From a phage, in sequence record PZ386948.1: a stretch of 64,000 nucleotides of DNA. One strand, 5' to 3'. The position numbers were made by a program, and so were the translations under genes. Positions 7,997 through 36,041 of this stretch are shown here, in pieces. The notes below the pieces were generated by a model. The model was given only the letters and a program-made list of their open reading frames with translations. It had not been told where the DNA came from and did no database searches. The number at the start of each line of letters is the position of its first letter. Within the stretch, counting starts at the first letter, position 1.

Positions 7997-8467
7997 TTAA
8001 TCATGTTTCCACACCCCATCGGTATTTGACCAAAGCCGCTGATTATCTGATCCTCTCCACAGCTTTTTGGTCGGAAGATTTTTCTCATACTTCCCATCAA
8101 TAATAACATCAACATATTTAAGCATTTCTAGTTGTTTAATATCTTCAAACTTATATCCTGTCCACAACCAAATGCTTTTATTTGGATAAAGATTTTTTAC
8201 TGTTTGAACAATGCAATGAATAACATCTCGATTATCAGGATAGAGAGGGTCTCCTCCAGTTATAGTTAATCCTTCTATATAATCATTATTCAAACATTCA
8301 ATTAATTGTTCTAGTGTTTCACCAGTAAATGGAATACCATTTCTAGCATTCCATGTTGATTTATTATAACACCCTTCGCATTTATGCAAACAACCTGTAA
8401 CGAAAAGAACGGCCCTGCATCCAGGGCCGTTCACAAAATCGCAAGGATAAAATCTATCATAATTCAT
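7997..8467 (-). CDS. nrdG: Anaerobic ribonucleotide reductase activating protein (radical SAM)
   Basis: 156 aa; CLHKCEGC radical-SAM cysteine motif; overlaps the nrdD stop. Confidence 0.9.
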   Translation of the reverse strand: MNYDRFYPCDFVNGPGCRAVLFVTGCLHKCEGCYNKSTWNARNGIPFTGETLEQLIECLNNDYIEGLTITGGDPLYPDNRDVIHCIVQTVKNLYPNKSIWLWTGYKFEDIKQLEMLKYVDVIIDGKYEKNLPTKKLWRGSDNQRLWSNTDGVWKHD

Positions 8468-10281
8468 TGGTGTTTAACCCTATGCATGATTTCTTTATTT
8501 TTACCGAGATTAAATCCGCGTTCGTTCGGATTTCCCAAATAACCACATGTTCTTCTTATTGTGTTCATCTTTTTAGGATCAGTTTCTCCACAAATAGAAC
8601 AAACAAATCCGTTTTCAGTAGGAGTCATTTCATGGGTACTTCCACATGTAAAACATTTATCTACTGGCATATTAACACCAAAATAATCTAAATGTTGTGC
8701 AGCATAATCCCATACGGCCTCAAGACCCTTTAAGTTATTTTTCATATCAGGAAGTTCAACATAAGAAATGTGACCACCTGTCGCAATGAAATGATATGGC
8801 GCTTCACGAGAAATCTTTTCAAACGGAGTAATATTTTCTTCTACTGAAACGTGGAAACTGTTAGTGTACCAGCCTTTATCGGTAACATCTTTTACACTTC
8901 CATATTTTTCTGTATCAAGTTTACAGAAGCGATAACAAAGGTTTTCAGCAGGAGTCGAATATAAACTAAAAGCAAATCCAGTTCTTTCAGTCCACTGTTT
9001 AAGATGAGCATTCATTTTAGTTAAAATTTCTTGTCCAATATCACGACCGACAAGAATATTCAATTCGTGAATACCAATGTATCCTAGGGACACTGAACTT
9101 CTACCGTTTTTAAATAACTCAATTATGTCGTCATCAGGTTTAAGACGAACCCCGAATGCACCTTCTTGGTAAAGAATAGGAGCAACAGTAGCTTTAACTC
9201 CTTTTAAGGAACTAATTCTACACATCAATGCTTCAAAACATAAATCCATTCGTTCATTGAACAATTCAACAAATTTCTGTTCATTGAATTGTGTTCCAAT
9301 ATAAGAATCTAACGCGATGCGAGGAAGATTCAATGTTACAACACCAAGATTATTACGTCCATCAAGAATTTCATTGCCAGTCGAATCTTTCCATACGCTC
9401 AAGAAACTACGGCATCCCATCGGAGAAACAGGAACAGATGAACCAGTGATAGCTTTATTGTTCTTAGCCGAAATGATGTCAGGATACATTCTTTTGCTTG
9501 CGCACTCTAAAGCAAGCTGCTTAATATCATAGTTCGGGTCGTCTTTATAAAGATTAACACCTTCTTCAACGAACATAACAAGCTTAGGGAAAATAGGAGT
9601 TATCCCATCACGACCAAGACCTTTAATACGATTTTTCAGAATTGCTTTCTGAATCATTCGTTCAGTCCAGTCAGTTCCCGTACCAAATGTAATTGTTACA
9701 AAAGGCGTTTGTCCGTTTGAACTAAAGAGAGTATTTACTTCATATTCATAAGCTTGGAATGCATCGTATACGTCTTTTTCTGTTTTAGATTGAGCATAAT
9801 TTAACGCATCAGCGATTTGCCATTTTTCTGCATCCTCAATATGTTTTGCATAGGTGCGTTTAACATAAGGAGAAAGTACTTTATCTACATTAGCAAAAGT
9901 CGTTCCGCCGTATTGATGGGAAGCAACCTGTGCAGTAATTTGTGCCATAATTGCAGTAGCAACACCGATTGATTTAGGAGTTTCAATCTGTGCATTACCA
10001 AGCTTAAATCCATTCTCAAGCATTCCTTTTAAATCTACTAAACAACAATTAGTAAATGGAAGAGCAGGGGAATAATCAATATCGTGGAAATGAATAATTC
10101 CGCTTTCATGCGCTTTCATAATAAAAGACGGGACCATATTTTTGGCAATGTGTTTAGACACAATACCAGCCATAAGGTCCCGTTGAGTTGGAAAAACACG
10201 AGAATCTTTATTAGCATTCTCGTTTAAAAGGTCTTTATTAGTTTTATGAATCAATCCTTCAATTTCTTTTTCAATTGTCAT
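8464..10281 (-). CDS. nrdD: Anaerobic ribonucleoside-triphosphate reductase, uninterrupted
   Basis: 605 aa; C-terminal glycyl-radical motif RRTCGYLG and Zn-ribbon cysteines; continuous ORF with no intron. Confidence 0.95.
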   Translation of the reverse strand: MTIEKEIEGLIHKTNKDLLNENANKDSRVFPTQRDLMAGIVSKHIAKNMVPSFIMKAHESGIIHFHDIDYSPALPFTNCCLVDLKGMLENGFKLGNAQIETPKSIGVATAIMAQITAQVASHQYGGTTFANVDKVLSPYVKRTYAKHIEDAEKWQIADALNYAQSKTEKDVYDAFQAYEYEVNTLFSSNGQTPFVTITFGTGTDWTERMIQKAILKNRIKGLGRDGITPIFPKLVMFVEEGVNLYKDDPNYDIKQLALECASKRMYPDIISAKNNKAITGSSVPVSPMGCRSFLSVWKDSTGNEILDGRNNLGVVTLNLPRIALDSYIGTQFNEQKFVELFNERMDLCFEALMCRISSLKGVKATVAPILYQEGAFGVRLKPDDDIIELFKNGRSSVSLGYIGIHELNILVGRDIGQEILTKMNAHLKQWTERTGFAFSLYSTPAENLCYRFCKLDTEKYGSVKDVTDKGWYTNSFHVSVEENITPFEKISREAPYHFIATGGHISYVELPDMKNNLKGLEAVWDYAAQHLDYFGVNMPVDKCFTCGSTHEMTPTENGFVCSICGETDPKKMNTIRRTCGYLGNPNERGFNLGKNKEIMHRVKHQ

Positions 10282-28117: not shown

Positions 28118-28331
28118 ATTTGACTTCCTCACCAGTACATAAATCGTATTCAACTAAACGAATAGGTTCATGAATGCCATATCCTTGAACAGAAATTTCT
28201 GTCGTAGGATAAATTCCATTAATATCACCCATGTTCCATGCTTCGTTAAATTGCTGTTCGCCTGAATTACTAAACCACTCGGCGAAAGCATTTAGCACAT
28301 CTTCAGAACCTTCAATAATTATCTTTGCCAT
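28110..28331 (-). CDS. Hypothetical acidic protein
   Basis: 73-aa ORF; start overlaps the GrcA-like stop. Confidence 0.45.
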   Translation of the reverse strand: MAKIIIEGSEDVLNAFAEWFSNSGEQQFNEAWNMGDINGIYPTTEISVQGYGIHEPIRLVEYDLCTGEEVKYD

Positions 28332-28693
28332 TACAAACTCTCGGTGAAGGTACGAGCGATAACGTCGCGCTGCTGTTCCGGAGTCAGAGAGTTAAAGCGA
28401 ACTGCATAACCGGATACACGGATGGTCAGCTGCGGATATTTTTCCGGATGCTTAACTGCATCTTCCAGAGTTTCACGACGCAGAACGTTAACGTTCAGGT
28501 GTTGACCACCTTCAATTTTAACTGTAGGCTGTTGCTCAATTTCAATTTCACGGGCATGCAAACCATAGAAAATTTCTGGGTCTACAAAAGAGTCCTCTTT
28601 AAAGGTTTTAGAGACAATAATTCGTGCTTGAATACCATCTTCAAAATAAATAGTACCTTTATGTGTGCCTTCAAGAATTTGATATGCTTTCAT
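28331..28693 (-). CDS. Autonomous glycyl-radical cofactor (GrcA/YfiD-like; T4 Y06I-type)
   Basis: 120 aa; C-terminus ...[33 protein letters not shown] carries the glycyl-radical RVSGY motif; 3' half is GC-rich. Confidence 0.85.
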
Positions 28694-28699
28694 ATAACC

Positions 28700-29029
28700 T
28701 CAATTAGAAAATAAATTTATCCAAGATTGTTCTTTAATTAAAAATGGCTCAGAATCATATGCCATTAAACTCTGTGTGATTAGTCCTTTAAAAGGCCCAT
28801 CAATAAATTCCATGGTAAAATATGGAATTTTATTCATTAGCCGTGCATTAGGAGCCGTGCACAAAACTCTGCATCCTTTGAATACGCCTTTTTGTAATTT
28901 GTATTGCTTGGGATAAAATTCGCTCAAAATGTTATTTTTTGCCAAAATTTCAAAATGATTCACCAATTTATTTTTAATAGTTTTTGGCGAAAAATAAAGA
29001 TATTCGAAAAGCTGAGTGTCTGTCATCAT
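28700..29029 (-). CDS. Hypothetical protein
   Basis: ATG at 29029 overlapping the upstream stop (ATGATGA). Confidence 0.45.
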   Translation of the reverse strand: MMTDTQLFEYLYFSPKTIKNKLVNHFEILAKNNILSEFYPKQYKLQKGVFKGCRVLCTAPNARLMNKIPYFTMEFIDGPFKGLITQSLMAYDSEPFLIKEQSWINLFSN

Positions 29030-29565
29030 TGCATTCCGATTACGAAAAACTGTGGACGAGTAATACCACCAATGCAACATTTAATATTACAGCAGCAGTG
29101 TACAGTGTCAATATGGACACTATAAATCTTATCCATATCAGGAGATTTGACAGGCTCATCAATTATATACAAAATTCGCGAAAGCGATAAACCTCTGAAC
29201 TTGCTTCCTTTATTACCAATAAAACTGCGCACAGAATCAGTAAATAAACGAAAACGTATATCATCATTAGAATAACGCGAAAATTCCTTTTTAATATTAT
29301 CTGCGGAAATTTTAGCGTAAGCTGAAGTATTAGAAAGAACAATAACTGTTCCACCGTCATACAACCAATTAGCGGCAAAATTAGTTACTGCAGTTGATTT
29401 ACCAGATTGACGCCCACCATCTAGTCGAAGTGTACAATACTGTTTAAGTAAGTCTTCAAATGGCGGGATATATTCGTTTTTACAAATTTCTTCTACTCTA
29501 GCATCAGAATGGTGTGTAAAAGCATTCATCAGGGATAGATAAGGACCAGTTAAAAATGTTCTCAT
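29026..29565 (-). CDS. P-loop NTPase
   Basis: Walker A GGRQSGKST and Walker B ILYIIDEP; start codon uncertain (29565 preferred). Confidence 0.5.
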   Translation of the reverse strand: MRTFLTGPYLSLMNAFTHHSDARVEEICKNEYIPPFEDLLKQYCTLRLDGGRQSGKSTAVTNFAANWLYDGGTVIVLSNTSAYAKISADNIKKEFSRYSNDDIRFRLFTDSVRSFIGNKGSKFRGLSLSRILYIIDEPVKSPDMDKIYSVHIDTVHCCCNIKCCIGGITRPQFFVIGMQ

Positions 29566-34388: not shown

Positions 34389-34862
34389 TTATTTGATTTG
34401 TTTAGCAGACCAAATGCGATCTTTAATAATTTTTTGGATGTCTTCAACATACACAAGAGAGTGAGCATGTGGATTATCTTTGAAACTATAAGCACGAGCT
34501 AGTTTTTGGCCTTCAGTTTTGATTACTAAAAGCTCTTTAAGGATAGCTTCATATTTGGAGATAATTCCTTTAACAATATTTTTTTCTTGTGCAGCTTTAG
34601 GATCTGCTTTAGGAGCAGGTTTACCCGAAGCCTTTGCAAAAGCAGCGCCAGTAGCAACTAAACTTTTCCAGGCCATACTAACTGCATTTCCCGTAAATCC
34701 TTCCGCTTTCATGTCGCGTGCGAACTGGAATCGCGATTCATCAGAAGCATCTTTATAAGAATATTTACCCGCTGCAATGGCTGCTTTTGCGACAGCTTGA
34801 ATTTCGGTGCTAGATGCTTCATTTAACACCGCTTCATTTAAAAATTGAGTATATGATTTCAT
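34389..34862 (-). CDS. Internal-protein-like protein with capsid-targeting sequence
   Basis: 157 aa; N-terminus MKSYTQFLNE|A resembles the T4 IP targeting sequence MKTYQEF... with an LxE cleavage motif. Confidence 0.6.
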   Translation of the reverse strand: MKSYTQFLNEAVLNEASSTEIQAVAKAAIAAGKYSYKDASDESRFQFARDMKAEGFTGNAVSMAWKSLVATGAAFAKASGKPAPKADPKAAQEKNIVKGIISKYEAILKELLVIKTEGQKLARAYSFKDNPHAHSLVYVEDIQKIIKDRIWSAKQIK

Positions 34863-34898: not shown

Positions 34899-34906
34899 TA
34901 TTTATA
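34899..34906 (-). promoter_or_regulatory. Late promoter (TATAAATA) for the IP-like gene
   Basis: Exact TATAAATA on the minus strand about 37 bp upstream of the ATG. Confidence 0.55.
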
Positions 34907-34907
34907 C

Positions 34908-34935
34908 TAAAAAGCCCCAACCTTTCGGTCGGGGC
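34908..34935 (-). terminator. Rho-independent terminator, copy 2 of the identical 31-bp element
   Basis: Same hairpin as 34353-34380 with U-run. Confidence 0.7.
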
Positions 34936-34941
34936 TAAGCC

Positions 34942-35235
34942 TTGCGGCAACCTTGTCGGGGTTCCACCTGCTAAGGCAAGTGTTTGTACGAAACGCCGGG
35001 ATTCGAACCCGGTTATTAAGCAGTTGACGCTACTCAATATTTTTAAAAGGCCATATCTCGACCATATCCGAACGTTCCGTCAAAAACGCTACTCGGCTTA
35101 CGGCAAAGATATTTCCTCGAATCGATAATTCGGTGCGCCGTTTCTGCTGTGATGTAAGAGGGCATCAATAAACGCAAAGATTATTAACGCAATTCCTTAC
35201 TCAGGGAACATCAGTCCGACGACTTACCGGTAGCG
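34942..35235 (-). ncRNA. Structured GC-rich non-coding region, candidate stable small RNAs (T4 rnaC/rnaD-like position)
   Basis: No ORF; tRNA-like T-arm CCGGGTTCGAATCCCGG on the minus strand; sits between tRNA-Arg and the terminator as species 1/2 RNAs do in T4; boundaries approximate. Confidence 0.35.
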
Positions 35236-35614: not shown

Positions 35615-35690
35615 TGGTCGAGGCAGTAGGGATCGAACCTACGACCTAGGACTTAGAAGGTCCTTGCTCTTCCTTCTGAGCTATGCCCCG
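35615..35690 (-). tRNA. tRNA-Arg (anticodon UCU)
   Basis: Manual cloverleaf: acceptor CGGGGCA/TGCCTCG, anticodon loop CTTCTAA, T-arm GTAGG-TTCGATC-CCTAC, 3' ACCA. Confidence 0.8.
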
Positions 35691-35694
35691 TAAT

Positions 35695-35781
35695 TGGGGT
35701 GACCGATGGGAGTCGAACCACCCGAGTCGCAATGACAATGGATTTACAGTCCACACCGCTACCTCTACGGGATAACTCCCC
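35695..35781 (-). tRNA. tRNA-Tyr(GUA)-like class II element, probably degenerate
   Basis: Canonical anticodon arm GTGGA-CTGTAAA-TCCAT, long variable arm, TTCGACT T-loop and 3' CCA, but acceptor and T stems pair poorly. Confidence 0.4.
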
Positions 35782-35794
35782 TTAATTCTTAATT

Positions 35795-35869
35795 TGGTGG
35801 CCCTGGGTGGAATTGAACCACCATCTGGCGATTATGAGTCGCTTGCTTGAACCTTCCAGCTACAGGGCC
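35795..35869 (-). tRNA. tRNA-Ile/Met (anticodon CAU)
   Basis: Acceptor GGCCCTG/CAGGGCC, anticodon loop CTCATAA, T-arm GGTGG-TTCAATT-CCACC, 3' ACCA. Confidence 0.75.
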
Positions 35870-35870
35870 T

Positions 35871-35946
35871 TGGTGCTGATTGACGGAATCGAACCGCCGA
35901 CCTTCTCATTACAAGTGAGTTGCTCTACCTACTGAGCTAAATCAGC
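35871..35946 (-). tRNA. tRNA-Thr (anticodon UGU)
   Basis: Acceptor GCTGATT/AATCAGC, anticodon loop CTTGTAA, T-loop GGTTCGATTCC, 3' ACCA. Confidence 0.8.
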
Positions 35947-35951
35947 AAAAC

Positions 35952-36041
35952 TGGCGGAGGCGATAGGATTTGAACCTATGAGTCGCCGGAGCGACTGCCG
36001 GTTTTCAAGACCGGTGCATTAAACCACTCTGCCACGCCTCC
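35952..36041 (-). tRNA. tRNA-Ser (anticodon UGA), class II
   Basis: 90 nt; acceptor GGAGGCG/CGCCTCC, anticodon loop CTTGAAA, long variable arm, T-loop GGTTCAAATCC, 3' GCCA. Confidence 0.8.

Follow-up and report, generated by a model that had tools for sequence, protein, structure and literature searches.

A host-identical tract in the glycyl-radical cofactor gene vs.6 of a T4-type phage: probable conversion of an old phage homologue by Escherichia coli grcA

Introduction

How does a virulent phage come to carry, within one gene, a stretch of DNA that is letter for letter that of its host? The question is raised by gene vs.6, found in a 64,000-nt stretch of phage DNA (the window). It codes for a homologue of GrcA (also called YfiD), the autonomous glycyl-radical cofactor that serves Escherichia coli as a spare part for pyruvate formate-lyase (PFL).

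Neither the gene nor its function is new (Wagner et al. 2001), and GenBank contains annotated identical sequences. Nolan et al. (2006; PMC1524935) found vs.6 conserved across all the T4-like genomes they compared, and otherwise gave only a Pfam hit. The present analysis adds the history of the gene at the DNA level: 169 nt of vs.6 are the sole match to a host chromosome in 64 kb, and an equivalent tract, matched to Klebsiella alleles, is present in Klebsiella phages. In the literature searched, which did not extend to PMC150520 (a review of the T4 genome) or PMC6754787 (an NMR study of YfiD), no mention was found of the exact match to host DNA, nor of its counterpart in Klebsiella phages.

The best explanation, to which we give a probability of roughly 0.85, is that vs.6 encodes a glycyl-radical cofactor and is an old phage homologue of grcA carrying a patch converted on a host template, by a process that recurs. 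The evidence is set out below, together with the alternatives.

Identity and setting of the gene

The window is T4-type phage DNA. The open reading frame lies exactly where a model's reading of the letters (the sequence-only reading) had placed it, at 28331-28693 on the minus strand (120 aa, 13.86 kDa), and is the Tequatrovirus gene vs.6, the product of which is known in T4 as Y06I. The features of the gene and its upstream region are as follows.

28331..28693, minus strand: coding sequence of vs.6 / Y06I, phage autonomous glycyl-radical cofactor (GrcA homologue), from the ORF, Pfam, TIGR04365, 6OWR and synteny
28409..28411, minus strand: codon of Gly95 in the RVSGY motif, predicted glycyl-radical site, aligned to GrcA Gly102 and PFL Gly734
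28698..28701, minus strand: Shine-Dalgarno-like GAGG, 4 nt upstream of the vs.6 ATG, read from the sequence
29084..29111, minus strand: sigma-70-like promoter candidate, TTGACA-16-TAATAT, upstream of the vs.7-vs.6-vs.5 run, from a promoter scan

The surroundings include homologues of lysozyme e, denV, regB-like, nrdD (8464-10281) and nrdG (7997-8467). The immediate neighbours are homologues of vs.7 and vs.5, in the order vs.7-vs.6-vs.5, which is also that of T4; relatives carry the labels vs.7, vs.5 and vs.4 on the neighbouring genes, and in several of them the ORF itself is labelled vs.6 or 'autonomous glycyl radical cofactor GrcA' in GenBank. The gene is 100% identical in nucleotide sequence to that of the Tequatrovirus phages Lutter and Pinarejo. 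It agrees with the T4 copy at 358 of 363 nt and 119 of 120 residues, the sole substitution being Q54 here for P54 in T4.

Family searches agree on the assignment. Pfam Gly_radical (PF01228) matches residues 60-101 with E = 2.5e-18. The best-scoring family is NCBIfam TIGR04365 (spare_glycyl), which covers residues 20-120 with 154.9 bits and E = 1.2e-45; the score is below the curated equivalog cut-off of 170, because the N-terminal half has diverged. Using phmmer, residues 22-120 match the YfiD structure 6OWR (E = 9e-42), and residues 58-120 align with residues 697-759 of PFL (PDB 2PFL/1H16; E = 5e-26). The radical-site motif RVxG[FWY] is present as RVSGY, and its conserved glycine is residue 95. 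The radical role predicted for this glycine follows PMC8683613.

The Shine-Dalgarno-like site overlaps the stop codon of the vs.7 homologue (28700-29080) upstream of vs.6. The promoter candidate may, from its sequence, serve early transcription of the vs.7-vs.6-vs.5 run; the number of sites in the promoter and terminator scan was not above the shuffled expectation. In the annotation of phage Lutter, a promoter is placed between the two ORFs upstream of vs.6.

Salmonella phage Lv5cm (H19, MZ150757.1) matches vs.6 at two places, and its record annotates an autonomous glycyl radical cofactor twice, which may represent a duplication.

The host-identical tract

BLASTN against 5,426 complete E. coli genomes matched vs.6 positions 179-363 to grcA in all of them, at 97.3%. 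The donor of the DNA is grcA and not pflB, because this 97% match is annotated grcA in every genome. In a pairwise alignment, identity is perfect over 169 nt, where window 28347-28515 corresponds to E. coli grcA nt 200-368, and similarity is absent past the vs.6 stop codon and upstream of 28515. The gene is divided as follows.

[quoted passage not shown]
28347..28515, minus strand: host-identical tract of 169 nt, 100% to E. coli grcA, a putative conversion tract; GC 0.497
28334..28346, minus strand: 3' junction, with the last codons F T E S L, from the alignment to E. coli grcA

The tract codes in full for residues 61-115 (GrcA 68-122), inside the structured glycyl-radical domain. At the protein level, residues 61-120 are 100% identical to GrcA 68-127, as had been anticipated in the sequence-only reading, where the C-terminal domain was taken to be identical or nearly so to that of E. 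coli GrcA.

The composition changes at the same place. The GC content of the tract is to be compared with 0.337 in the 5' half and 0.347 in the window as a whole (z = 3.3, top 0.5% of 169-nt windows), and similar values elsewhere in the window occur only in the tRNA region. The host-type codons CTG, CGT and CCG are confined to the tract and are missing from the 5' half. The sequence-only reading had described 28331-28510 as GC-rich and host-like: the step is real, and these limits are correct to within 15 nt or so on the 3' side and 5 nt on the 5' side. Of the checks that it had proposed, alignment to grcA and to T4 Y06I and a GC profile gave the perfect run, the near-identity to T4 and the step in GC.

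The match is also specific. The longest exact match is 169 nt in E. coli, 77 nt in Escherichia sp. MOD1-EC7003, and at most 47 nt in the 79 other species compared, which belong to the Enterobacterales and Pasteurellaceae. The 5' half (28516..28693) has no BLASTN similarity to the host, and megablast of the remaining window (1-28346 and 28520-64000) gave no match to the E. coli chromosome, and only weak tRNA matches to phage-plasmids. The host-identical tract is thus confirmed as an observation far beyond chance.

An equivalent tract in Klebsiella phages

A second case is provided by the Jiaodavirus phages of Klebsiella. In KPV15 (L108) and other members of Jiaodavirus, the 3' tract agrees with E. 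coli grcA at only about 85-87% of positions. Its perfect runs are to the metagenome contigs L167-L169 instead, of 131 nt in Jiaodavirus 15882-6-2 and 140 nt in KPV15. The GrcA encoded by these contigs is exactly GRCA_KLEP7 of K. pneumoniae, and the adjoining gene is a bacterial helicase of the SrmB type (srmB); the Klebsiella alleles used here are metagenome contigs, with the species inferred from the protein. When K. pneumoniae grcA was used as query, 106 phage records matched at 95-99%, and among the matches listed all are Klebsiella phages. The alignments therefore give good support to the view that the Jiaodavirus tract is an independent, equivalent patch derived from grcA of the K. pneumoniae complex.

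The variation among these phages is informative. Polymorphism is 4-4.6% in the tract, as against 0.6-1.1% in the 5' half beside it. The Klebsiella alleles L167 and L170 are combined as mosaics in three Jiaodavirus genomes: all five of the sites in the tract that distinguish the two alleles are also polymorphic among the three phages, with the same bases, for which the chance expectation is about 2e-5, on a small sample. A mosaic of two Klebsiella alleles argues for repeated transfer from host to phage.

The KPV15 homologue of vs.6 (L108, 401-762) has 362 nt where other Jiaodavirus phages have 363, and is either a frameshifted pseudogene or the result of a sequencing error.

Distribution among T4-type phages

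The E. coli tract is carried by about 639 GenBank records of T4-type phages, at 95-99.5%, and its start is nearly always at grcA nt 199-200. The carriers belong to Tequatrovirus and its relatives, and some of them were isolated from Yersinia, Hafnia and Salmonella. With grcA of Salmonella enterica and of Enterobacter as queries, no phage exceeded 84-86% among the matches listed; the Enterobacter query gave one further record at 90-95%. A patch from the phage's own host was accordingly not detected for grcA of Salmonella or Enterobacter.

The comparison of the window phage with the lineage of Av-05 and phiE142 bears on the age of the tract. The divergence is about 30% in the flanking genes, 10% in the 5' half of vs.6 and only 1-2% in the tract. 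The synonymous difference is 0.33 in the 5' half and 0.045-0.09 in the tract (Fisher p = 0.001-0.012). This low divergence implies that the tract is younger than the split of the lineages, or else that it has spread between them. Four variants within the T4 group (17T, 26A, 41C and 158T) coincide with variants of E. coli alleles; the sites are few, and the coincidences are only suggestive of repeated exchange.

The gene in Escherichia phage OES_C-2 (L163, 329-685) has lost 6 nt in frame from the 5' half and encodes 118 aa. It is the closest to E. coli grcA among the phages listed, at 99.5% over nt 200-384, the only change being GAA to GAG. A 19-kb 'viral' contig (L111, IMGVR_UViG_2706794630_000006) carries a full-length grcA of bacterial type, 88.8% identical over 384 nt to that of Yersinia artesiana, which is probably bacterial DNA beside a prophage call and not a phage gene.

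A single event or repeated conversion

The variation just described could in principle have arisen from just two conversions, one ancestral to the T4-type phages and the other in Jiaodavirus, without any exchange since then, all later differences being due to mutation and to recombination between phages. On such an account it is natural that the T4-type members all share one 5' junction, including a phage-specific ATT codon, and mostly the same 3' region, and that within Tequatrovirus the tract and the 5' half are similar in synonymous divergence. The account is harder to reconcile with the Jiaodavirus variants, which reproduce every one of the five differences between two Klebsiella alleles in a tract that is more polymorphic than its surroundings, and with a tract that is far less diverged than the 5' half between Tequatrovirus and Av-05/phiE142. 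Moreover, closely related phages differ at the 3' junction: T4 has a perfect run of 178 nt, L084 and L088 have runs of 175 nt and the window phage has one of 169 nt, and in UFV-AREG1 the match is shorter and interrupted. The run is shorter here than in T4 because the window phage has the phage-type codons TTC ACC GAG near the 3' end; TTC ACC is the phage-type allele, also found in CC31. We consider the single-event account unlikely, though it deserves to be taken seriously.

The pattern suggests instead that, during infection, the domain-coding part of vs.6 undergoes gene conversion that depends on homology to DNA of the host chromosome. Pieces of this chromosome, once degraded, would probably recombine with phage DNA at vs.6, and the tract extends, on both sides, almost exactly to the limits of the phage/host similarity sufficient for recombination (about 80%). 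Over the domain part, relatives that have not been converted share about 80% identity with host grcA because the domain is almost invariant. Given this figure, and given that the tract is the only host match at megablast level in 64 kb, vs.6 is probably the sole place where host fragments can recombine. Repeated copying from whichever host allele is available would homogenise divergent phages if that allele is near-invariant, as in E. coli, and would diversify close phages where host alleles differ, as in the Klebsiella complex. Conversion might be neutral, or might be favoured by selection as a way of keeping the domain suited to the PflA and PflB of the host; the E. coli type has LEDAVKH and the Klebsiella type LLDAVEH.

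Recurrence is well supported by Jiaodavirus and Klebsiella and only suggested for the T4-type phages and E. coli, and it is documented in two host genera only. Going further, we lean towards the proposal that vs.6 is a hotspot for ongoing, homology-guided flow of DNA from host to virulent phage, in which each lineage repeatedly copies the grcA domain segment of its current host, so stays matched to PflA and PflB, and carries the tract as a barcode of the host. If this is true, the tract is a natural barcode of the recent host species and allele, and T4 with E. coli would offer a tractable assay of the way in which strictly lytic phages take up host genes and renew them. As an example, the E. 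coli tract is retained in Tequatroviruses isolated on Yersinia, Hafnia or Salmonella.

The N-terminal half

The sequence-only reading had regarded the N-terminal half as phage-specific, and the gene as a relatively recent chimera between a phage gene and host grcA. A fusion of this kind, joining an unrelated gene to the 3' part of grcA, would fit the sharp step in composition and identity at 28515/28516, and also the result that the N-terminal half alone matches no family in Pfam or NCBIfam. With no such match, its homology can be recognised only by comparing profile with profile. When this was done with hhalign, using profiles of the N-terminal halves of 10 phage and 10 bacterial GrcA sequences, the two aligned end to end, over all 60 columns, with a probability of 97.4%, E = 1e-11 and 28% identity. 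Inspected by eye, phage sequences from metagenomes such as L101-L106 seem to be intermediate between the phage and bacterial forms. Furthermore, CC31, L096, L098 and T5-like phages have the same N-terminal half together with a C-terminal domain at ordinary divergence from any host (72-86% in nucleotides). That distant relatives have the two-part gene with an ordinary 3' half implies that the two-part gene predates the host-identical tract.

A recent fusion of unrelated parts is thus very improbable. Of the earlier proposal, the recent host derivation of the 3' half stands, and the joining to an unrelated, phage-specific gene does not: the N-terminal half is a diverged GrcA N-terminal half. The profile alignment and the relatives together indicate that vs.6 is an old phage homologue of grcA over its whole length, of which the domain-coding part appears to have been overwritten by host sequence.

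Two IMG/VR sequences of 109-119 kb (L115 and L117) contain GrcA-domain ORFs of 154 aa with an architecture that differs from vs.6; at the N-terminus they have a long region with no relationship to the bacterial or to the T4-type half.

Host origin and protein constraint

The glycyl-radical C-terminal domain is almost invariant in protein sequence across the Enterobacterales and many phages. It could therefore be argued that no transfer has occurred, and that the identity reflects extreme purifying selection on the protein combined with convergent codon usage. This is refuted by the IMG/VR loci L096 and L098, which are probably the E. coli phages RB16 and RB43. They encode respectively the same final 60 residues and 58 of the 60, yet their nucleotide identity to E. 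coli grcA is only 82-83%, with longest runs of 17-20 nt. The tract identity is therefore not a matter of protein constraint. In CC31 the nucleotide identity to E. coli grcA is 79.6%. Bacterial species with identical protein segments likewise differ by about 10-14% in nucleotides. In vs.6 itself, the last five sense codons are as conserved in protein as the rest, yet contain 5 synonymous mismatches to E. coli (28336, 28337, 28340, 28343 and 28346), and the tract is specific to E. coli and not to sister Escherichia species. We give the argument from constraint practically no credence.

A wider comparison gives the same picture. When 80 phage homologues from IMG/VR were compared with the best of 81 host species, nucleotide identity was 72-86%, save in the T4-type and Klebsiella-phage groups; the T4-type group L083-L086 reaches 96.8-98.9% to its best host. 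Among these 80 loci, compared with the 81 species and later with 161 host loci, no host-like tract was found outside the T4-type and KPV15-type groups. Each of these groups has its own donor, E. coli for the T4-type tract and Klebsiella alleles for the Klebsiella phages. The sequence-only reading had named two outcomes that would speak against a host origin, a nucleotide identity no higher than protein conservation predicts and a uniform GC profile; what was found is 82-83% in the controls, and a step in GC. Recent host origin of the 3' half is supported by these alignments.

Transfer from phage to host, conceivable in principle, and host contamination or assembly chimerism, of which one metagenomic E. 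coli grcA contig that looks chimeric with pflB (L199) might be an example, have nothing specific in their favour and can be dismissed, since the tract has host GC and host codon usage, all 5,426 E. coli genomes have grcA, whose similarity to grcA of other species declines with taxonomic distance, each phage group matches its own host genus, and the tract has been sequenced independently in over 600 phage genomes, T4 among them.

Function and comparison with known systems

According to PMC8683613, which cites Wagner et al. 2001, T4 Y06I is activated by PFL activase and restores oxygen-cleaved PFL, and YfiD is activated and restores PFL in the same way. The protein here differs from Y06I by one residue (Q54P), and by analogy it is expected to be a spare part for oxygen-cleaved PFL. 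The sequence-only reading had pointed to the same repair function, in agreement with this biochemistry. In PMC8683613, residues 1-60 of YfiD are described as disordered and 61-127 as structured, with the N-terminal half aiding binding and activation. The tract, which corresponds to GrcA 68 to about 124, takes up most of the structured domain without reaching beyond it, and the unconverted part corresponds to the disordered half.

The mechanism would then be as follows. Oxygen cleaves host PFL at Gly734, and the spare part binds the damaged enzyme, helped by its N-terminal half, which would also assist activation. The host activase PflA would install the radical on Gly95 of vs.6. The C-terminal domain would slot into the cleaved PFL in place of the lost piece carrying Gly734, and full activity would be regained.

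Compared with T4 Y06I, the protein and the locus are the same apart from the residue at position 54 and the length of the host-identical run noted above. With E. coli GrcA/YfiD (6OWR; TIGR04365; IPR011140), vs.6 shares the last 60 residues, the 169 nt and the layout of an N-terminal half followed by a structured C-terminal domain. It differs in length (120 aa against 127) and in the N-terminal half, which is only about 28% identical in the profile alignment. The genetic settings also differ: E. coli grcA lies between ung and eamB, whereas vs.6 is in a phage early-gene cluster. The part of vs.6 that aligns to PFL corresponds to the C-terminal domain of PflB, the piece that the spare part replaces; unlike PflB, vs.6 is a stand-alone 14-kDa protein without the catalytic barrel.

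Intragenic recombination between host and phage is a known type of event in cyanophage photosynthesis genes; for psbA and psbD it was reportedly described by Zeidner and colleagues in 2005 and by Sullivan and colleagues in 2006. The resemblance is that a host-derived metabolic gene in T4-like phages swaps patches with the host copy. By comparison, the vs.6 patch is one structural domain with an exact match to a host allele, and it is found in virulent coliphages that contain hydroxymethylcytosine and degrade host DNA, with two host genera involved.

Implications

The vs.6 protein is one of only two biochemically validated spare parts for PFL. Its presence means that T4-type phages invest in host fermentation during oxygen intrusion, alongside their own anaerobic ribonucleotide reductase NrdD/NrdG. 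The sequence-only reading had drawn a connection to nrdD and nrdG. Both genes are indeed in the window, but they are about 18 kb away and the connection is merely thematic. If the pattern of conversion is general, vs.6 would be a rare clean case of repeated gene conversion from host to virulent phage, testable in T4 and E. coli.

There are also practical consequences. Reads or primers from the tract do not distinguish phage from host. A phage-typing study from 2026 (PMC12845203) uses grcA as a core marker gene for Straboviridae qPCR primers. Because 170-180 nt of this gene agree letter for letter with E. coli grcA, host DNA would be amplified too by primers sited in that part. Filters for host decontamination or for binning may similarly clip or misassign the region of the tract.

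Other features

In the window, 34906-35099 is a GC-rich gap poor in ORFs (169-nt windows of at least 0.50), between the ORF at 34389-34862 and the tRNA cluster. ARAGORN, and Rfam at the gathering threshold, find nothing there; our guess is a small stable RNA like rnaC/rnaD of T4. The cluster is as follows.

35615..36041, minus strand: tRNA cluster of four tRNA genes, Arg-TCT, Met-CAT, Thr-TGT and Ser-TGA

The cluster has no match on the E. coli chromosome. Part of it (about 35665-35787) matches tRNA genes on some 213 E. coli plasmids of about 93-116 kb, at 81-90%.

Several IMG/VR contigs classed as 'viral' (L152-L162) carry a pflB-like sequence ending ...SLTKEQQQDVITRTFTQSM, which is not GrcA. 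Some of the frames are cut by the contig end, and one reaches far upstream into PflB. They may be bacterial pflB at the borders of prophage predictions, or truncated pieces of PFL carried by phages. Finally, contig L199 (OHAV01008836.1) has a grcA at about 701-1081 that is of E. coli type, with a segment ...VMNREMLLDAMENPEKYPQ... of PflB type, and shares a 101-nt exact run with pflB-like sequences (L156-L161). It is either a natural conversion of grcA by pflB inside a bacterium or a chimera of metagenome assembly.
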